In this document: piece after piece, positions 8,019-16,549 of the stretch
Layout of the letters: the number at the start of each line of letters is the position of its first letter
How positions within the stretch are numbered: position 1 is the stretch's first letter
From: Opitutales bacterium
GTDB lineage: Bacteria > Verrucomicrobiota > Verrucomicrobiia > Opitutales > UBA953
Assembly: GCA_044232865.1 (NCBI GenBank)
Contig: JBIILC010000001.1
Coordinates: forward strand, 11,652 to 75,651
Direction of reading: 5' to 3'
DNA length: 64,000 bases
Notes under the pieces: generated by a model
Told to the model about the DNA's origin: nothing
The model's input: only the letters and a program-made list of their open reading frames with translations
The model's database searches: none
Program-made: the position numbers and the translations under genes

Positions 8019-8885
8019 ATGCTGACAGCAGAATGTCTCTATTCTAAGCCCATGCTAAAGATCTCCGCCCAACTGAACGACGAGGAATTCCTCGGTACCG
8101 CCGAGGACCTGGCCGCCTTTGTCTCAGATAAACTCGCCTCCCTGGGGTTCGGCGATCGCCACCGCTCGACGGAGCGACTGGTGCGCTTCTACGCCTATGA
8201 AGGTCTGCTCTCCAAGCCCGAGCGAGCCCCCGACGACCGCCGCAAGGCCAACTTCGGCCCCCTGCAGGTCCGGCAGCTCCTCCTAGCGCGCCTCTTAGCC
8301 GAACGTGGCTGGGATCTCGACCGTATCCGCACGCTACTCCACGAGAACCGTATCATCGCCCAGCTGAACAAGCTCATCGACGAATTAGCCACGCCCACCG
8401 AGGCGGAAAAGCTCTTCTTCCGGACGCGCGGCAGCGACGTCGACACGCTTTCTGAGCCCTCCGCTCCCCGCTCTTACCGGCCGGACCGCAGCCTCTCGCC
8501 CGTTCTCTTCTCGGCCCGCGACAGCGAAACGCCGGATTCGTCGTCACCTAAGTTCCGCCGTAAGACCAGCTACTCGACCGTCCAACAACTCAGACAGATC
8601 GCCGATAGCGAAGAAAGCCCCGCCGAAGCCCTCCGCCTGATGATAAAAAAAGAGATGGCGCGCGACGACCTCTCCCCGGCCGCCCGCAATCTCTTCGAAC
8701 AGCTCCTGGCCTTCAACCCGACCACCCGCGGGGATGAACCCAAGACGGAAAGGTGGACCAAACTTCGCTTGGCGCATTGGTGCGAGGCCCACTTCAATAT
8801 CGACAGTCGGATTACACCCACAAGGGAGGAACTGCAGGGAATCGTGGACAATTTTAGCAAAGCGTTAATGAACAAGTACTTATAA
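8019..8885 (+). CDS. MerR-like HTH protein with an uncharacterised C-terminal region
   Basis: STERLVRFYAYEGLLSKPER...FGPLQVRQLLLARLLAERGWDLDRIRTLL resembles the MerR wHTH plus dimerisation-helix pattern. The remaining ~170 aa is unrecognisable. An alternative start is ATG 8052. Confidence 0.45.
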   Translation: MLTAECLYSKPMLKISAQLNDEEFLGTAEDLAAFVSDKLASLGFGDRHRSTERLVRFYAYEGLLSKPERAPDDRRKANFGPLQVRQLLLARLLAERGWDLDRIRTLLHENRIIAQLNKLIDELATPTEAEKLFFRTRGSDVDTLSEPSAPRSYRPDRSLSPVLFSARDSETPDSSSPKFRRKTSYSTVQQLRQIADSEESPAEALRLMIKKEMARDDLSPAARNLFEQLLAFNPTTRGDEPKTERWTKLRLAHWCEAHFNIDSRITPTREELQGIVDNFSKALMNKYL

Positions 8886-8962
8886 TTATGACAGTAACTT
8901 TTATGTGCTAATGACACAAAAGTATCTCTGTCGGTGTTGACATTATAAGGGAGTGGTCCAGA

Positions 8963-10351
8963 GTGGAGGAGATGATTCCTCCCATGAACCCACCCAAGAT
9001 CGAAATCCTGCCCCTGAAGAAGGGCTTCCTCCGCGCCGCAGCTGATGCGACGCATGTCCTCGTCCGTATCGTCGCCCCGGCCAAACCTGCGGACATCGCT
9101 GACACCCCCCGCGCGCCCCTCGACCTCTCCCTGGTCATCGACCGCTCCGGCTCCATGAGCGGCGGCCCGCTCGAAGCGGCCCTCGAAAGCGCGGCGCGTA
9201 TCGTCCGCGGCCTGCGTCCCGATGACCGCGTCGCCGTCGTGGCCTTCGATTCCACCATCGAAGTCGTCCAGCCTCTGACCCATGTCACCGACCGCGAAGC
9301 CATCGTCAACCGCATCAAGTCCATCGACGAACGAGGTTCGACGGATCTCTTCGGCGGATGGGAGGAAGGCGTGAAGCAGCTTGCACCCTTCACCCGCAAG
9401 GATCGCATCGCTCGCGTCATCCTACTCAGCGATGGCCAAGCCAATCAGGGCCTCGTCAACGAACAGGAGATTTTCGCCCGAGTCACCAAGGCCGCCGGCG
9501 CCGGCATCACGACCTCCACCGTCGGCCTCGGTCATGGCTTCAACGAATCGCTCATGACCGGAATGGCCAACGCCGGCGAAGGCGTTGCCAACTTCGGCCA
9601 GACGGCCGATGACCTCGACGAAGCCTTCGAAGAGCAGTTCGCCATCATCTCCAACTCGTTCCTGCGCCAGGTGAAGGTCAGCGTGCAGGGCGGCAGCGAC
9701 GTCCAGGCCCGTCTGGTCGGCGAAATCCTCGAAGAAGGCATCGCCCGTAGCCGCAAGCTCGGCACCCTACCCTGGAACGCCTCTCTCGTCGCGGTCTTGG
9801 AACTGAAGATTGGCGCCGGCGCCAAGGCCGACGCGCTCGCGGCGATTCATTTCGAGGCTCTGACCAAAGAAGGCGAGACCGTCAACTTCGGCCCCGAGCT
9901 GATCGCCCTGCCGGAAACCGACCTCGCGGCATTCTCCGTCCTTCCCGTCGACTCTTCCGTGGCAGCGGCGGTAGGCGAGGCAATCGTCTCGGAAAAGATT
10001 GAGTTCATCGAAGCCCTCGCACGCCAAGGCAAACTCGTCGAAGCGAAGAAGGAATTCGAAGAGCTGCTCAAACGGAGCGATCTTTCGGACTGGGCCAAGC
10101 AGAAGGTCGAGTACCTGAAGCAGCTGCTCGACGAAGACGCCATCATGGCAATCAAGGAGATGCGCTACGGCCGCACCCGCATGCTCCGTCAGTCGAAAGC
10201 CGCGATGATGCGCGACTTCGACACGCAATTCTGCGCGGCATCGGAAGACATGAAGGAGATCTACCTCCAAAAGAAGGTCGCCTCGGGCGTGGCCCGTAAG
10301 CCCAAGCCCCCGCAGGGCGGCACGGCGGGCGGCCAGGCCCCGCAGGCCTAA
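8963..10351 (+). CDS. von Willebrand factor type A (vWA) domain protein
   Basis: MIDAS motif LVIDRSGSMSG, then RGSTDL and ILLSDGQANQG, then a beta-rich middle region and a helical C-terminus. No signal peptide or TM segment. Start is ambiguous (GTG 8963, ATG 8972 or ATG 8984). Confidence 0.8.
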   Translation: MEEMIPPMNPPKIEILPLKKGFLRAAADATHVLVRIVAPAKPADIADTPRAPLDLSLVIDRSGSMSGGPLEAALESAARIVRGLRPDDRVAVVAFDSTIEVVQPLTHVTDREAIVNRIKSIDERGSTDLFGGWEEGVKQLAPFTRKDRIARVILLSDGQANQGLVNEQEIFARVTKAAGAGITTSTVGLGHGFNESLMTGMANAGEGVANFGQTADDLDEAFEEQFAIISNSFLRQVKVSVQGGSDVQARLVGEILEEGIARSRKLGTLPWNASLVAVLELKIGAGAKADALAAIHFEALTKEGETVNFGPELIALPETDLAAFSVLPVDSSVAAAVGEAIVSEKIEFIEALARQGKLVEAKKEFEELLKRSDLSDWAKQKVEYLKQLLDEDAIMAIKEMRYGRTRMLRQSKAAMMRDFDTQFCAASEDMKEIYLQKKVASGVARKPKPPQGGTAGGQAPQA

Positions 10352-10372
10352 GCGCCCCAAACGCATGATTTC

Positions 10373-10403
10373 GCCCGGTGGAAGCAATTCCACCGGGCTT
10401 TTT
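10373..10403 (+). terminator. intrinsic terminator after the vWA gene
   Basis: gcccggtgg-aagcaatt-ccaccgggc followed by ttttt. Confidence 0.75.
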
Positions 10404-10446
10404 GTTGCCCGGTCAAAGCCACGAGCCAAGATGAGTGCCCGTCCCT

Positions 10447-13400
10447 ATGTCCCGCGTTCTCCGCTTTACCCTCTGGAGCGTCGGCATCCTTGCCGTCGTC
10501 CTCGGAGCCACCCTTTTCTGGGTCGAATCCCAACTCCGCCCCGAACCGCTGGGCGCTCGCGTCAAAGAGCTGCTTGCCGACGCCAAGATCATAGGCGGTA
10601 TCGCCCGCATCGAAGCCTCCCTCGATGGAAAATTCTCCGCCGAAGGTATCGACCTCACCCTGCCCGATGGCACAAAAATCTCCGCCGCGGCCATCAAAGG
10701 CGAAGCGCAGATCATCTCGATCATCAAGGGTACCTACGCCCTCAGCAGCCTCGAGATCAAGACCCTCGACGTCGACCTAAGCGAGCGCAAGCCGGAGGCG
10801 AAGACTCCGGGCACCGGTTCCGTCGCCGCGACAAAGACAACCTTGCCGCCCGTTGTGCTCGGACCCTACGCCGTCTCTGGACGCGTCAAACTCGCGGATG
10901 GCACATTGCTCCGCTTCAGCGTCCGCGGCGATGAGTTCGACACCCGCGGCAAGGCCGACTTCCGCGCCGGCATCGCCTGGCCGGGCTTCGCCGTCGGCAA
11001 GCAGATGACTGACCCTCGCGGCGAAGTCACCTTGAAGGCTAATTTCAAGCGACCACTCGGCGCTGACGGCATCGGCCTCGACGACCTGATCGCCGATATC
11101 GGCAGCCTACGACTCGAACTCGCGGCCAAAGATGCGAGCCCCATCGCCGCTGGCTCCGTCGGCTTCGTCCTGGATGTAGCCAGCACCGCCGGCAAGCCCG
11201 GCGTTGATTTCACCGGCACGCTCAGCGATTCCGCCAACCGTCCTGCGGTGAAGCTCTCCGGCAACAACCTCGCTGGACGTACGACCGTCAATGCGCAACT
11301 AGACGTCGACCCCACCCGCTTCGGCATACTGAGCCAGCAGCTACCCGAAGTCCGCCTCTCAGGCAACGCCAACGGAGAAATCGAAGGCTCTCGGTGGCAG
11401 GCCAGCGCCGACCTCAAGGCGCTCTGGGCGGACCTGAGTAAATTCTCGAAGTCACTCGCGAAGAACAGTCGTTCCGAATGGAAGCTCGCCGCGAATGCGC
11501 AAAGCACCGATAGCGGCTTCGCCGTCAACAGCCTCGCGATCACCGGCAACGGCGTGACGATTGCCATCCCGCAAACGCTGACGTGGAAAGGCGGCCTGCT
11601 CCCTGAAAACGCCAACGACGCGACGGTGACCATCGCCGCCAACGACGCCGACCTGAAGGCGCTTAACCCTTTCCTCGCCGCCGCGGACATCATCGCAACG
11701 GCCGGACTCTGGACCGGCGAAGCCTCAATCTCCTTCAAGGACGGTAAGCCAGCCGTCACGAGCATCCGCACGCACAGCCTGCGCGGCGCCACGCTCGAAC
11801 GCGGCGGCAAGCCACTGATGCATGAGATTGATGCGGAGCTGCCTATCAAATCTGAAGATGGCGCGATCTCCCTCGCGCCGTTCAGCGTCGGCTGCGCCGC
11901 CGGTAATATCGCCACTGGCTCGCTCACGCTTCGTCCGGGTGCCGATGGCGCTTGGTCCGCCGTCGCCAACGTCAACGTCGGCATCGTCGAGCTCGCCTCT
12001 CAGCCCAATTGGGAAGACCTGCCCGTCGATAAGCTCAAGGGTATCCGCGTGAGCGCCCAGACCACCGTGAATCGCGCCGTCGGCAATTCGCCCGTCGTTA
12101 GCGCTGCGGAGGCACGCATCTTCCGCCAAGGCCTGAACCTGCTTTCCCTCAAGCTTCGCCAACCGCTCGCGCTCGACGGCTCCAAGCCCACTGGCGTGCT
12201 CGTGGAGGCCGCGGCCCGCGACCTGCCTCTCGAATCCCTCTCCGCGGTCGTCCCCGGACTCAAACTGACCGGCGACCTCAAACGCGCCGACCTTGTCGCC
12301 GGCTTCAGCCGCGAAGGGCTCTTCGTGCGCACGGAAGGCGCGCCGCTCTCCTTCACCCGTACCAGCGTCACCTGGACCGGCAAACTATGGGTCAAGGATT
12401 GCGACCTGGCCGCGAGCCTCGACCTTCTGGTCGGCGAGAAATCCACCCTCATCGGCTTCAACCAAGCGGAGCTGAAGAATCGTAGCCGCACACTAGCTTC
12501 GGGTGACATCAAACTCGGGCTGGGCGACGCTGGCACCACGCTGAAGCTCGAAGGCGACCTCGGTGCGCTCGCCGAGCAGCCATTCGCGGGGCCGCTGAAT
12601 ATCGTCACCGGCGGACAGTATCGCGCGACGGCCGACCGTGCTCAAAGCGGCGAGATCAACGTCGCCCTCCAAGTGAGCGAAGTCGGCCTCAAGCAAAGCG
12701 AAGGACGCATTAAGACGGCGGCCCTGAGCGGCAAATATGTGCCGGCCGCCAACGGCCTCGGCGCCGAAGGATCGTTCAAGCTCCAGGCGACGAACCTTAG
12801 CTCCGGCAAGTTCACGCTCACGCAGAAAATCACTGGAGCGAAGACCGACTGGCAGGCCGTCGTGGCCATCGATAATGTCGATGTCGACGACTTCCTCTCG
12901 CTCCTGCCCAAGGTCGAAGAGGATATTTCCGCTAACGGCGCACGTCCCAGGCCTGACCGAGCTCCCTTCTGGGCCAACCATAGCGGCTCGATCCAATTGA
13001 CGATCGGCACGGCGAAAGCCTACGGCATCAGCGCCGAGAAAGTCGTCGTCCGGGCGGAAGCCGAGGAAAAGGCTATCCGCCTGACGCAACTCAACGGCAA
13101 ACTCGCCGACGGCGTCCTCAGCGGCCGCGGCCAGCTCGCCTTCCAGCCGACGATCAGCAACGGGCCCTATTCGCTCTCGGCCACAGTGTCGCTCAACCAG
13201 TTCGATTTCGGTAGCGTCGCCCAAGCCTTCCCCGCGGTGAAAGATTTCCTCCAGGGGCGCGCAGATGCGACCGCGGGGCTCACGAGCATCTGCGGCACGC
13301 CCGGCGAACTCGTCGACAAACTTCAGGTCGACACCCAACTCACCTCCAAAGGCGGCCGCATCCGCCCCTTCGGCGATAAGAACAGCGGCATGTCGCTCTC

Positions 13401-14025
13401 AGCGAATAAGGCTGGTGATATCGGAGAAACGCTGGGCGGCCTCGCGATGCTCGCCGGCGCCCTCACGAAGAACCAACAGCAAGGCGAGAAGGTGGCCAAA
13501 ATCGGCGCCGCCATGAGCGCCGCTGGCAAGCTGCAGAAAGCCGTCGCGGACTTCCAATACACTTCCGCGACCATCAAGGCGTCCCGCCTCGCTTCGGGCA
13601 CAATCAAGCTCGAGGCGGCCGACATCCGCAATGAAGTGCTACACCTCGCCGCCAAGGGCGGCATCAACGTCGACCCCAAGCTGGGCTTCGCCGACTGGCC
13701 GATGGCCTTCACCACGCAGATGCGCGGCACCGGAGAATACGCCCAATACTTCCAGGCGCTGGGCTTCGGCACGGGTCCGTCGCCGGTCGACGGCTTCACC
13801 GAAGGACCCGGCGTCAGCGTCGGCGGAACTCTTAATCAAGTGAAGACCGACCTCGCCGAGAAACTCCAACAGGCGATCGACAACGTCCGCGCAAGCCAGT
13901 CCACGGCGCCTTCCAATCCGGGCACCCAGGCCGCCCCGGGCACCCAGACTGCTCCCGCCCCGACGACACCAAGCCCGAAGAAGCGGAGTCCCTTCGGCGA
14001 CCTACTCCAGGAACTCGGTCGCTGA
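10447..14025 (+). CDS. AsmA-like / TamB-like large envelope protein
   Basis: Single N-terminal TM helix (FTLWSVGILAVVLGATLFWV). About 1100 aa of beta-rich repetitive body with AsmA-type N-terminal (IEASLDGKFSAEGIDLTLPDG...LEIKTLDVDL) and C-terminal (LNGKLADGVLSGRGQLAF...LQGRADATAGL) patterns. Pro/Thr-rich tail. Confidence 0.65.
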   Translation: MSRVLRFTLWSVGILAVVLGATLFWVESQLRPEPLGARVKELLADAKIIGGIARIEASLDGKFSAEGIDLTLPDGTKISAAAIKGEAQIISIIKGTYALSSLEIKTLDVDLSERKPEAKTPGTGSVAATKTTLPPVVLGPYAVSGRVKLADGTLLRFSVRGDEFDTRGKADFRAGIAWPGFAVGKQMTDPRGEVTLKANFKRPLGADGIGLDDLIADIGSLRLELAAKDASPIAAGSVGFVLDVASTAGKPGVDFTGTLSDSANRPAVKLSGNNLAGRTTVNAQLDVDPTRFGILSQQLPEVRLSGNANGEIEGSRWQASADLKALWADLSKFSKSLAKNSRSEWKLAANAQSTDSGFAVNSLAITGNGVTIAIPQTLTWKGGLLPENANDATVTIAANDADLKALNPFLAAADIIATAGLWTGEASISFKDGKPAVTSIRTHSLRGATLERGGKPLMHEIDAELPIKSEDGAISLAPFSVGCAAGNIATGSLTLRPGADGAWSAVANVNVGIVELASQPNWEDLPVDKLKGIRVSAQTTVNRAVGNSPVVSAAEARIFRQGLNLLSLKLRQPLALDGSKPTGVLVEAAARDLPLESLSAVVPGLKLTGDLKRADLVAGFSREGLFVRTEGAPLSFTRTSVTWTGKLWVKDCDLAASLDLLVGEKSTLIGFNQAELKNRSRTLASGDIKLGLGDAGTTLKLEGDLGALAEQPFAGPLNIVTGGQYRATADRAQSGEINVALQVSEVGLKQSEGRIKTAALSGKYVPAANGLGAEGSFKLQATNLSSGKFTLTQKITGAKTDWQAVVAIDNVDVDDFLSLLPKVEEDISANGARPRPDRAPFWANHSGSIQLTIGTAKAYGISAEKVVVRAEAEEKAIRLTQLNGKLADGVLSGRGQLAFQPTISNGPYSLSATVSLNQFDFGSVAQAFPAVKDFLQGRADATAGLTSICGTPGELVDKLQVDTQLTSKGGRIRPFGDKNSGMSLSANKAGDIGETLGGLAMLAGALTKNQQQGEKVAKIGAAMSAAGKLQKAVADFQYTSATIKASRLASGTIKLEAADIRNEVLHLAAKGGINVDPKLGFADWPMAFTTQMRGTGEYAQYFQALGFGTGPSPVDGFTEGPGVSVGGTLNQVKTDLAEKLQQAIDNVRASQSTAPSNPGTQAAPGTQTAPAPTTPSPKKRSPFGDLLQELGR

Positions 14026-14966
14026 TGACGGCAACGAAGGCATGGGTGGCGGGCTGCGTCCTGCTGGCAGGCCTCGTTGTCCTTGCCCTTTCCGTCGGCA
14101 CCCAAGGCTTCGGCTGGGGTGACGGTGGCTCCCTCCTTCTCCTCCGCTCGCCTCGCGTGCTCGCGGCTCTCGCGGCCGGACTCGCCCTCGGCATCGGCGG
14201 CGCCGCGCAACAAGGCGTCTTCCGTAATCCGCTGGCCGATCCGGGGCTGACCGGCGTTTTCGGTGGCGCACTCTTCGGCATCGCCGTCCTGCTCGGACTC
14301 TTTCCAGAAGCGGCGTGGCAGCGCGCTTGGTTTATCCCCGCCGCCGCGTTCGGGGGCGCACTCGGCACCTCCGCCTTGCTCACGCTGATCGGCAGCGGGG
14401 GCTCCTCCTCCCGCCTGCTACTCACCGGCCTCGGCCTGAACGCCTTCACCGCAGCTGGCACCCTCGTCATCGCCTCCCGCAGCGGGGAGTCACGTGAACT
14501 ACTGACCAACGGCGCTTACGGCGACTGGCTGGGGATGGCCACGCTCGAACTCACCTGGCTGCCCGTACTCCTCTGCCTCGCGGCGGCGCTACTGCTGCTC
14601 CCACTCGCGCGCTCGCTGGATCTTCTGTCCTTTGGGGAAGACGCGGCTCGCGGCTTTGGGTGCGAGGTCGGTAGCGCTCGGCGCAAGGCCGTCCTCCTGA
14701 CGGCCTTGGCCGCCGCGGCCGCTACCTGCCTTGTGGGCCAGGTAGCCTTCATTGGTCTTCTGGCGCCTCATTTGGCCCGCGCCTTAGTCGGCCCCCGCCA
14801 TGCGCACGTCCTGCCCTTGTCGGCCCTTCTCGGCGCCGGCCTGCTCTTAGGAGCTGATACCATCGGTCGTGGCCTTTGGCCGCAGGCTCCGCTGTCCGCT
14901 GCGGCGGTGACTGCAATTCTCGGTGCACCTCTCTTTATCTGGATAGCAAGGGGGCGCCATGAGTGA
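14025..14966 (+). CDS. FecCD/BtuC-family ABC transporter permease
   Basis: LRSPRVLAALAAGLALGIGGAAQQGVFRNPLADPGLTGV..., FIGLLAPHLAR and ILGAPLFIWIA are collinear with BtuC/FecCD. ATG overlaps the upstream TGA by 1 nt. Confidence 0.85.
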   Translation: MTATKAWVAGCVLLAGLVVLALSVGTQGFGWGDGGSLLLLRSPRVLAALAAGLALGIGGAAQQGVFRNPLADPGLTGVFGGALFGIAVLLGLFPEAAWQRAWFIPAAAFGGALGTSALLTLIGSGGSSSRLLLTGLGLNAFTAAGTLVIASRSGESRELLTNGAYGDWLGMATLELTWLPVLLCLAAALLLLPLARSLDLLSFGEDAARGFGCEVGSARRKAVLLTALAAAAATCLVGQVAFIGLLAPHLARALVGPRHAHVLPLSALLGAGLLLGADTIGRGLWPQAPLSAAAVTAILGAPLFIWIARGRHE

Positions 14967-15666
14967 CGCCTTGATCCACGCGCTTGGACTCGGCGTCGAG
15001 ATCGGCGGCCGCCGCCTCATCGACGGCGTGTCCCTGTCCGCGGCCCGCGGGCAGGCCGTAGCGATTGTCGGACCCAATGGCGCCGGCAAGACGACGCTAC
15101 TGCGTGCCCTCGCTGGGCTGCTCCCCTCCGAAGGAGAACTAGATGTCGGCGGATATGATCCGCGGATTATCGATGCGGCAACCTGCGCCCAAACCCGCGC
15201 GTACTGCGCGCAGAAACCCGTCAGCGCGTGGGATTATCGCGTCAGCGACCTCGGCGATATCATCGGCGACCCCGTCGGCTACGCGGAGTGGCTGGCGAAG
15301 TTGCAACTCGGCGAATTCTCTGACCGCCGTTTGTCCGAGCTGTCCGGCGGCGAACAGAAAGGCGCGCACCTCGCGATGGCGTTCGCCGCACTCGCCGAGC
15401 CTTTCGGCGGAGCGCTGTTGCTCGATGAGCCCGCGGCGGCCCTTGATCTCGGCCGACAGGAAGCCGTTGCCCAGGCTATCCTTGCGTTTGCTCAAGCCGG
15501 CGGTGCCTGCGTCGTCGCCACACATGATCTCTCCTTTGCGAAGCGCTGCGACGGGGTTGTGGTGCTCTCGGAAGGCCGCCTCATCGCCGCCGGTGAACCC
15601 GCGTCGACCTTGACCCCCGAAATTATTTCCGGGGTCTGGGGCGTGTCGGCTTCGTCGGCACACTGA
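14959..15666 (+). CDS. ABC transporter ATP-binding protein (BtuD/FecE-like)
   Basis: Walker A GPNGAGKTT, signature LSGGEQKG, Walker B LLLDEPAAALD, H-loop ATHD. Start overlaps the permease stop by 8 nt (ATGAGTGA). Confidence 0.85.
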   Translation: MSDALIHALGLGVEIGGRRLIDGVSLSAARGQAVAIVGPNGAGKTTLLRALAGLLPSEGELDVGGYDPRIIDAATCAQTRAYCAQKPVSAWDYRVSDLGDIIGDPVGYAEWLAKLQLGEFSDRRLSELSGGEQKGAHLAMAFAALAEPFGGALLLDEPAAALDLGRQEAVAQAILAFAQAGGACVVATHDLSFAKRCDGVVVLSEGRLIAAGEPASTLTPEIISGVWGVSASSAH

Positions 15667-16549
15667 CTTCGGCACGCGTCAGCCGACCGTTGCGGATAGC
15701 GGAGAAAAGATACTGCTGCGCCAAACCGGCGGCCTCGCCGAAGTGCGCTTTTCCAAACTGCTCTAGCTGGGCGGGCTTCCATCCGTGCAGGCCATAGGCA
15801 TCGGCGAGCGCTTGTACGACCCAGGTATCGACCGGGAAACTTTCCAAGCGGCCGAAGCCGAAGAGCGCGACACAGGCGGCCACTTTCGGGCCGACTCCTG
15901 GTAGCGACTGTAATTCGTCTAGCAAGTCGGCGGTCGTGAGGGCCGCGAATTCTTCGGCCCAGCGCGGGCGGGCGAGCAGCTTCTTGGCGGTACCGCGAAG
16001 ATAAGCTGCGCGGTAACCCAGTGAGCATGCGCGCAGCACGGCATCATCCGCGCTAGCGATTGCCTGCCACGAAGGCAGCGCGTGAAAACCGCCGCCCAAA
16101 GGTTCGCCCAGTTTCGCGGCCAAGGCGGCGACCATGACGCGGATCTGCAGGATGCGCTTGTTCGAACTACAAAGGAAACCGATCAGCGCCTCGTGCGGAT
16201 TCTGGCGCAGGATGCGCAGCCCGGGATAGGCCGCTCGCGCGGACCGAAGCACGGAATCGGAACGCCACGGCAGCGTCTCGGAGAGTCGCGCCTGCGCGCC
16301 CTCGGCATCAAGATAATGCCGTAAAGCGCCCTCGGCGTGAGCCGCGCCTTTCTGGCCGCGCCACTCCAAGCCCTGCGGACCTGAGCGCACGGCGGCGAGC
16401 GTGCGGCCAAAGACGCCGACCCAGCTGCCGTCGGCGGCAAGCGACCAGCGGAAAGCCTGCCCGCCGTCCATCTGCTCGGCGAGTGTCTCGGCGGAAACAT
16501 CCTCGGCGAGCCGCAATGGTCGCCAAGATGTCCACTCCGCCGAGGCCAT
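15623..16549 (-). CDS. ogg: 8-oxoguanine DNA glycosylase (OGG1-type, HhH-GPD superfamily)
   Basis: N-terminal OGG_N-like GGQAFRW, then HhH-GPD LPGVGPKVAACVALFGFGRLESFPVDTWV with the Lys and Asp positions of OGG1. Confidence 0.75.
   Translation of the reverse strand: MASAEWTSWRPLRLAEDVSAETLAEQMDGGQAFRWSLAADGSWVGVFGRTLAAVRSGPQGLEWRGQKGAAHAEGALRHYLDAEGAQARLSETLPWRSDSVLRSARAAYPGLRILRQNPHEALIGFLCSSNKRILQIRVMVAALAAKLGEPLGGGFHALPSWQAIASADDAVLRACSLGYRAAYLRGTAKKLLARPRWAEEFAALTTADLLDELQSLPGVGPKVAACVALFGFGRLESFPVDTWVVQALADAYGLHGWKPAQLEQFGKAHFGEAAGLAQQYLFSAIRNGRLTRAEVSVPTKPTRPRPRK

Follow-up and report, generated by a model that had tools for sequence, protein, structure and literature searches.

A divergent AsmA-like gene followed by a FecCD-class ABC importer gene pair: a compact gene order confined to one Opitutales lineage

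The DNA considered here is a stretch of 64,000 nucleotides (nt) from an Opitutales bacterium (GenBank assembly GCA_044232865.1, contig JBIILC010000001.1, positions 11,652 to 75,651 of the forward strand), referred to below as the window. Our subject is a set of three successive genes at positions 10447-15666: one for a large AsmA-like envelope protein, followed by two for the permease and the ATPase of an ATP-binding cassette (ABC) importer. Each component belongs to a known family, of which it is a new and divergent member, and the arrangement is a lineage-specific gene order for which there is textbook precedent. The reading we favour, to which we give a probability of about two in three, is that two independent envelope modules share a single compact transcript and that the binding protein of the importer is encoded elsewhere. 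A first-pass annotation of the same DNA had entertained an energised AsmA-like conduit, with simple operon packing as its fallback: it is the fallback that is the better supported. The conduit finds no support, given the restriction of the arrangement to one lineage, the collinearity of unrelated genes around it, the docking arginines of the permease and the precedent of btuCED in Escherichia coli.

According to the favoured reading, the first module would be a fast-evolving, lineage-specific AsmA-like protein, which one helix anchors in the inner membrane and whose long beta-sheet groove would span the periplasm; from the analogy with TamB, YhdP and YdbH, we infer that it lets phospholipid pass passively and in bulk between the inner membrane and the outer. 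The second module would be a canonical type II importer (FecCD/BtuCD/HmuUV/FhuBC class) for an iron chelate, heme or a corrinoid, with the substrate handed over by a periplasmic cluster-A binding protein. The gene for this binding protein, together with that for any outer-membrane receptor, would lie elsewhere in the genome – much as btuF does in E. coli – and the stop/start overlaps between the three genes would reflect the compaction of a streamlined freshwater genome, with no physical or mechanistic link between the modules.

Gene layout and encoded proteins

The AsmA-like gene (10447-14025, + strand, 1192 residues) begins with the ATG at 10447 and ends with the TGA at 14023-14025; an alternative in-frame GTG start is present at 10435. 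The gene for the FecCD/BtuC-family permease (14025-14966, + strand, 313 residues) follows with an overlap of one nucleotide, the A at 14025 being both the last base of the TGA and the first base of the ATG. The permease gene is overlapped in turn by that of the ABC ATPase (14959-15666, + strand, 235 residues), the shared segment being 8 nt in length (ATGAGTGA, 14959-14966). These coordinates and both overlaps, reported in the first-pass annotation, were recovered from the list of open reading frames (ORFs) and from the raw sequence.

Overlapping junctions are not unusual in this genome, where tight junctions are the default. Approximately 91% of the window is coding, and a gap of 10 nt or less separates 17 of 49 adjacent gene pairs, unrelated and opposite-strand pairs included (examples are panC/EamA, at 0 nt, the FGE-sulfatase/MFS genes, at 3 nt, and the ATPase/OGG pair described below). 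The overlaps within the triplet say little about function. The tight junctions do support co-transcription of the three genes: the triplet is probably a co-transcribed unit, and its stop/start overlaps suggest that translation of the genes is probably coupled.

On profile evidence, the 1192-residue product is a divergent AsmA-like envelope protein of the repeating beta-groove type. Its sole Pfam match is to AsmA (PF05170; residues 836-973) at 23.2 bits, which is below the gathering score of 29.8; a precomputed PF05170 match is present in close orthologues, and 14 of 43 family representatives match Pfam AsmA at E<1e-3 (best E 1e-14). Profile-to-profile alignment (hhalign, 43-sequence profile) extends this considerably: residues 809-1122 correspond to residues 278-559 of E. 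coli AsmA (96.5% probability, E ~1e-9) and residues 8-146 to residues 6-141 of E. coli TamB (87.9% probability, E 3e-6). The C-terminal third of the protein is thus homologous to the C-terminal half of AsmA, while its N-terminal 140 residues align with the N-terminus of TamB. The assignment made in the first-pass annotation therefore stands on the alignments to AsmA and TamB, although the protein itself stays under the Pfam score; the contrary proposal, that the large protein is not AsmA-like, is ruled out by the same two alignments. No match to the DUF490/TamB C-terminal domain or to AsmA_2 was found in the large protein, and no TamA-like or YnbE-like partner gene adjoins its gene.

The predicted architecture agrees with the single N-terminal transmembrane (TM) helix and beta-rich body described earlier. 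In a hydropathy scan, hydrophobic 19-residue windows are confined to residues 1-30, which corresponds to one TM segment. An AlphaFold2 model built from a 25-sequence alignment (mean predicted local distance difference test score, pLDDT, 77.8; predicted template modelling score, pTM, 0.50) places a helix at residues 3-29, followed by some 60 beta-strands with short helices, a helical hairpin at 981-1034 and further strands; the C-terminal tail, rich in Pro, Ala and Thr, is predicted to be disordered. Matches of the model to structures in the PDB (Foldseek) are weak: the beta-belt of ApoB100 (E 4.6e-5), a TamB chain (9xdd_B; probability 0.77, E 0.017) and LptD (E 4e-3 or worse). A sequence search of the PDB with a profile of close relatives returned matches at chance level only.

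The protein is therefore like AsmA, TamB, YhdP and YdbH of E. coli in having a single N-terminal inner-membrane anchor and, in the model, an almost all-beta body, and comparable to TamB and YhdP in length (~1200 residues). It differs from the E. coli proteins in being very divergent, under the Pfam threshold and without a sequence match in the PDB. A profile search of 1.84 billion representative proteins gave 197 clusters (at 50% identity) with E<1e-3: five of these are full-length orthologues, after which scores drop sharply to relatives of ~1100-1200 residues that share ~20% identity. The analysis thus documents a divergent verrucomicrobial AsmA-like subfamily that is missed by current Pfam thresholds.

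The two genes that follow encode, as judged from their sequences, the membrane and ATPase subunits of a type II (FecCD/BtuCD-class) ABC importer, and here the family assignments made at first pass are upheld without reservation. The permease matches Pfam FecCD at 204.1 bits (3.5e-60; profile positions 5-310 of 311), contains approximately 10 TM segments (9-10 hydropathy peaks) and has as its top sequence matches in the PDB FhuB (2.7e-46), HmuU (6e-36) and BtuC (~1e-25), with BhuU-like and HI1471 proteins also matched. The ATPase matches Pfam ABC_tran at 75.6 bits (7.7e-21) and carries an intact set of motifs: Walker A (GPNGAGKT), signature (LSGGE), Walker B with the catalytic Glu (LLLDE) and H-loop (THD). 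Its matches in the PDB include HmuV and BtuD, and among NCBIfam models it comes closest to the heme ABC ATPase PRK13548 (1e-49), at a score under the cut-off of that model. Indeed, all NCBIfam matches of the pair are under the equivalog cut-offs, so that the substrate can be assigned to the iron chelate/heme/corrinoid class but no further.

Three arginines of the permease deserve particular attention. In HMMER alignments to BtuC, HmuU, FhuB and others, R41, R44 and R282 coincide with R56, R59 and R295 of BtuC, the motif R41-S-P-R44 being aligned with R56-L-P-R59; we take BtuC R59 and R295 to be residues on which the binding protein docks. A MAFFT alignment of 29 sequences, comprising 26 permeases sampled from the lineage described below plus BtuC, FecD and FepD of E. 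coli, shows no substitution at any of the three positions. BtuC Arg56 makes salt bridges to glutamates of BtuF, and equivalent Glu-Arg pairs are essential for docking in FecB, FhuD2 and FeuA (PMC3741162).

The pattern of conservation in the gene pair bears on whether the transporter works. It could be argued that the importer is a decaying orphan: its binding protein would have been lost, and the remnant would be preserved only by its position within the transcript of an essential envelope gene. Such decay would fit with the lack of a binding-protein gene nearby, with an ATPase reduced to ~200 residues in the most divergent lineage members and with the rapid divergence of the ATPase, whose identity is down to 39-47% in the most distant members. 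It is difficult to reconcile with a permease that retains 53-100% identity and invariant docking arginines, with ORFs for both subunits that are intact in ~50 species genomes, and with the catalytic motifs of the ATPases: in the 26 lineage sequences sampled, Walker A is intact without exception, and a strict pattern recognises the signature in 22 of them and Walker B with the catalytic Glu in 25. As read from these sequences, the pattern is that of purifying selection on a working transporter, and we regard the decaying orphan as very improbable.

The short ATPases come from three loci, L056 (4941-5540), L057 (3101-3706) and L068 (11880-12476). They are 198-201 residues long and lack approximately the last 35 residues of the 235-residue window ATPase; all three still carry Walker A, signature and Walker B motifs.

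Distribution of the triplet within and beyond the lineage

An orthologue alignment of the large protein was used to scan 185,579 species-representative genomes (GTDB). Orthologues were found at 54 loci, one per species genome, all of them in Opitutales/Opitutia metagenome-assembled genomes (MAGs), mostly from freshwater, with identities of 36-96%; the lineage is probably a broad one, around the level of a family. In every locus whose contig extends far enough, the AsmA-like gene is followed by the FecCD and ATPase genes (tblastn). Three of the source records (L019, L035 and L053) bear the names 'uncultured Klebsiella sp.' or 'Polynucleobacter meluiroseus'; these MAGs have evidently been assigned to the wrong taxon.

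The triplet is not the only thing conserved in these loci. It is embedded in a longer collinear block – Amt-Amt-MerR-like-VWA-AsmA-like-FecCD-ATPase-OGG, where OGG denotes 8-oxoguanine DNA glycosylase – that persists down to 37% AsmA-like identity (locus L052). Because neighbours unrelated to the triplet are equally collinear, conservation of the triplet is by itself uninformative.

Within this block the AsmA-like protein evolves much faster than every one of its neighbours (L004-L057). In L052, where AsmA-like identity is 37%, FecCD stands at 65%, VWA at 63%, OGG at 61% and Amt at 79%. The tail of the AsmA-like protein (approximately residues 1150-1182) is variable and of low complexity, but conservation returns in roughly the last ten residues (consensus NPLGDLLxELGR). 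No feature of the AsmA-like protein was observed to go together with the presence of the ABC pair. One locus, L018 (CAXNMQ01, a long-read MAG), has an apparent frameshift in the AsmA-like gene at ~13072-13580: the tblastn match ends at residue 1024, with an early stop. This interruption is probably an assembly error rather than a sign of a pseudogene.

Outside the lineage the association is absent. None of eight out-of-lineage AsmA-like relatives examined (~17-24% identity) has a FecCD/ABC importer neighbour. Three of them (P0275, P0143 and P0271) have instead a conserved divergent DUF4337 neighbour; the gammaproteobacterial P0278, and likewise P0150 and P0141, have no importer neighbour; P0279 is flanked by a TolC-like gene and an AAA_21 ATPase gene that is not of a transporter; and P0152, from a Puniceicoccales MAG (L075, 6001-14278), is followed on the same strand, 165 nt downstream, by genes for an RND efflux adaptor and an RND pump. 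A scan of metagenomes with an alignment of the P0140 group, the nearest outgroup (~22% identity), gave 166 pattern matches, of which none was confirmed by tblastn. In a search for homologues of the permease, the 120 matches listed were all lineage members at 77% identity or above, and thus provided no out-of-lineage FecCD context. In the literature we found no description of an AsmA gene in a FecCD or ABC transporter neighbourhood. Together these data show that the triplet arrangement is lineage-specific: the recurrence across Verrucomicrobiota and beyond that the first-pass annotation had considered was found in one Opitutales lineage only.

The P0140 group has as its neighbour a conserved DUF4337 gene, divergently transcribed, on three separate contigs (L058, 7125-7856; L063, 5142-5849; L064, 800-1519).

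The missing binding-protein gene and the case for coupling

Known type II importers provide the closest comparison for the ABC pair. With BtuCD-F, HmuUV-T and FhuCDB it shares a FecCD permease of ~10 TM segments, docking arginines, a small ATPase with catalytic motifs, and overlapping genes. It differs from them in that no gene for a binding protein or receptor was found in the operon or in the 64 kb of the window; in addition, its best matches are split among hydroxamate, heme and B12 systems, and its subunits (permease 313 residues; ATPase 235, and ~200 in some relatives) are among the shorter of their kind. The claim that the unit contains no binding protein, TonB-dependent receptor or riboswitch holds in scans of the window with Pfam and Rfam. 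None of 36 window ORFs scanned with Pfam belongs to the Peripla_BP_2 or TonB-dependent-receptor families; Rfam finds five tRNAs in the 64 kb and no riboswitch. A cobalamin riboswitch, or other leader RNA, is excluded for the unit by this last result.

The search for a binding protein was extended to ORFs of at least 120 residues in the window and 66 loci by means of a profile of four E. coli sequences and phmmer, a combination of low sensitivity, and again none was found. For the flanks of related loci the negatives are based on precomputed Pfam annotation at four loci and on the crude E. coli-based profile at the rest.

How much should be made of this is best judged against E. coli K-12. There, btuC, btuE and btuD form a cluster at 1.79 Mb that does not include btuF; the latter is found 1.6 Mb away at 0.178 Mb, where it overlaps the unrelated mtn gene by 8 nt. 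Between the two transporter genes sits btuE, an unrelated peroxidase gene whose stop overlaps the start of btuD by 1 nt. This operon is thus likewise an importer operon without a binding-protein gene and likewise has an unrelated gene joined to it by a 1-nt overlap; the difference lies in the passenger, a small peroxidase in E. coli and a 1192-residue envelope protein, placed first in the unit, in the window. Given btuCED without btuF, and given that the docking arginines are retained, the argument from a missing binding protein is weak. Arginines that hold a binding protein have, moreover, no obvious reason to be invariant if none docks. By sequence and by analogy with btuF, then, the lack of a nearby binding-protein gene is probably not meaningful.

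Three observations nevertheless weigh against the reading we favour. The first is that the searches just described found no binding-protein gene, either in the 64 kb of the window or, for more than 50 related loci, in flanks of ~10 kb. The second is the junction between the AsmA-like and permease genes, which is kept in every locus with room for it except L018, with its apparent frameshift: the genes overlap by 1 nt or 4 nt or, in the most divergent members, are separated by 4 nt. (The permease/ATPase junction is usually an 8-nt overlap, and 4 nt in one locus; a nearest-start rule placed some ATPase starts just past the permease stop, whereas the tblastn alignment mostly begins 8 nt before that stop.) The third is that the most divergent loci – L056, L057 and L068 – keep the triplet even though their outer flanks differ. 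A triplet that outlasts its outer flanks is a weak signal of genes travelling together. In L068, however, what persists is a block of five genes and not the triplet specifically: a 278-residue gene without family assignment, then VWA, AsmA-like, FecCD and ATPase. The 278-residue gene precedes the VWA gene in the position equivalent to that of the MerR-like gene (the pair formed by either of these genes with VWA spans 8019-10351 in the window, 4772-7033 in L068 and 1594-3852 in L060).

The same observations can be put in favour of physical or mechanistic coupling, in which the FecCD/ATPase complex would dock on the membrane-anchored end of the AsmA-like groove. Two variants may be distinguished. 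In the first, the groove would be an ATP-driven conduit along which the complex pushes or extracts lipid or another hydrophobic cargo, in the manner of LptB2FG and the Lpt bridge; in the second, the groove would deliver a hydrophobic nutrient (heme, a lipophilic metallophore or a corrinoid) from the outer membrane, taking the place of the soluble binding protein and so permitting uptake of a micronutrient independently of such a protein. Coupling of this kind would be in keeping with overlapping or nearly overlapping junctions kept from 36% to 96% AsmA-like identity, with persistence of the triplet amid changed flanks, and with the lack of a binding protein, TonB-dependent receptor or riboswitch in window or flanks. 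It would also provide what AsmA-like proteins are not known to have, an ATPase partner (review PMC10345924).

Against this, the association is missing in all eight out-of-lineage relatives examined; within the lineage, the unrelated VWA, MerR-like, OGG and Amt neighbours are conserved to the same degree; the docking arginines are invariant, which is unexpected if no binding protein docks; and btuCED combines the same lack of a binding-protein gene with an overlap to an unrelated gene. We know of no type II importer fold that extracts lipids, and this too counts against coupling. The resemblance to the LptB2FGC-LptA-LptDE system is one of shared logic only, an inner-membrane ABC complex beside a periplasm-spanning beta-sheet groove: LptFG belongs to an ABC fold class different from that of FecCD, and the Lpt bridge is assembled from beta-jellyroll domains of LptF, LptG, LptC, LptA and LptD. 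Finally, bulk phospholipid flow by way of AsmA-like proteins is described as diffusive and ATP-independent (PMC10345924). On balance, recruitment of the type II complex to the AsmA-like groove, in either variant, appears decidedly unlikely.

Were coupling nonetheless true, an AsmA-like bridge would for the first time have an ATPase dedicated to it, and this would bear on what drives the flow of phospholipid to the outer membrane. The comparative evidence does not point toward such a bridge. Considered as two independent modules on one transcript, the triplet is instructive in another way: together with btuCED, it is an example of how, in compact genomes, a stop/start overlap and a missing binding-protein gene imply no functional link.

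Boundaries of the unit, its leader and the flanking genes

The strong terminator upstream and the convergent gene downstream, both proposed in the first-pass annotation as limits of the unit, were seen again here. The 5' boundary is an intrinsic terminator (10373-10408, + strand) detected by a terminator scan, and consists of the hairpin GCCCGGTGGAAGCAATTCCACCGGGC and then TTTTTGTTGC. The hairpin proper (10373-10398) has a stem of 11 base pairs, of which 8 are G-C, is followed by TTTTTGTT, and is the only strong terminator-like site that the scan found within 8.8-17 kb. Approximately 40 nt separate the terminator from the AsmA-like start codon.

Wherever the stretch between the VWA and AsmA-like genes is available for a member of the lineage, both the hairpin and the TTTTTGTTGCC that follows it are kept. 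Across these loci (AsmA-like identity 37%-96%), substitutions in the stem mostly preserve Watson-Crick or G-U pairing, as in the variants GGTGG/CCACC versus GGCGG/CCGTC and GATGG/CCATC. Within the intergenic region TTGTTGCC is invariant across the lineage and TTGTTGCCCG is present in all members but L052, while CAAGATG, located 16 nt 5' of the AsmA-like start and out of frame with it, is kept in most. The intergenic region as a whole (10352-10446; compared over L001-L055) is better conserved than the AsmA-like protein itself.

A candidate promoter may be drawn at 10405-10432 (+ strand), made up of TTGCCC, a 16-nt spacer and CAAGAT and overlapping the T-run of the terminator. It agrees with the consensus at only 6 of 12 positions, and the promoter scan did not call it. 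With low confidence, and going by sequence, a weak promoter might be placed at this site, with CAAGAT as its -10 element; such a promoter, if real, would yield a near-leaderless mRNA.

A further reading is a purely regulatory coupling. Here the modules would be independent, as in the reading we favour, but their co-expression would have been selected as part of one physiological programme, for example envelope remodelling and micronutrient uptake under a particular growth condition. The conserved terminator and the short invariant motifs upstream suggest a transcription start that is defined and has been maintained, the junctions are kept across the lineage, and the core of five genes persists in L068. 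Yet no regulatory element, such as a Fur box or riboswitch, was recognised in the leader of the unit, the arrangement was not found outside the lineage, and genome-wide compaction explains tight junctions without selection for co-expression. We consider selection for co-expression doubtful, and retain two independent modules in a compact transcript, with the binding protein encoded elsewhere, as the preferred reading.

The 3' boundary is set by the OGG gene (15623-16549, - strand; Pfam OGG_N and HhH-GPD, TIGR00588), which is convergent with the ATPase gene. The 3' ends of the two overlap by 44 nt (15623-15666, longest ORFs), and no terminator-like site was found between them. OGG is functionally unrelated to the triplet.

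Beyond the terminator, the upstream neighbour is the VWA gene (8963-10351, + strand, 462 residues; Pfam VWA 3.7e-17), which is found 5' of the AsmA-like gene throughout the lineage and whose product has no signal peptide as judged by eye. It is preceded by the MerR-like gene (8019-8885, + strand, 288 residues), likewise outside the unit; the match of its product to Pfam MerR_1 is a weak helix-turn-helix match (24.4 bits), the protein appears cytoplasmic, and the gene is collinear in all loci with room for it. The AT-rich spacer between the MerR-like and VWA genes (8886-8962) holds TTGACA beside TATAAG.

Further downstream, the segment 17526-22867 looks, from synteny with the annotated loci L003 and L060, like a cluster for sialic-acid utilisation: this putative cluster comprises Kelch/NanM-type mutarotase-like genes, an MFS transporter, a DHDPS/NanA-like lyase and a BNR sialidase.

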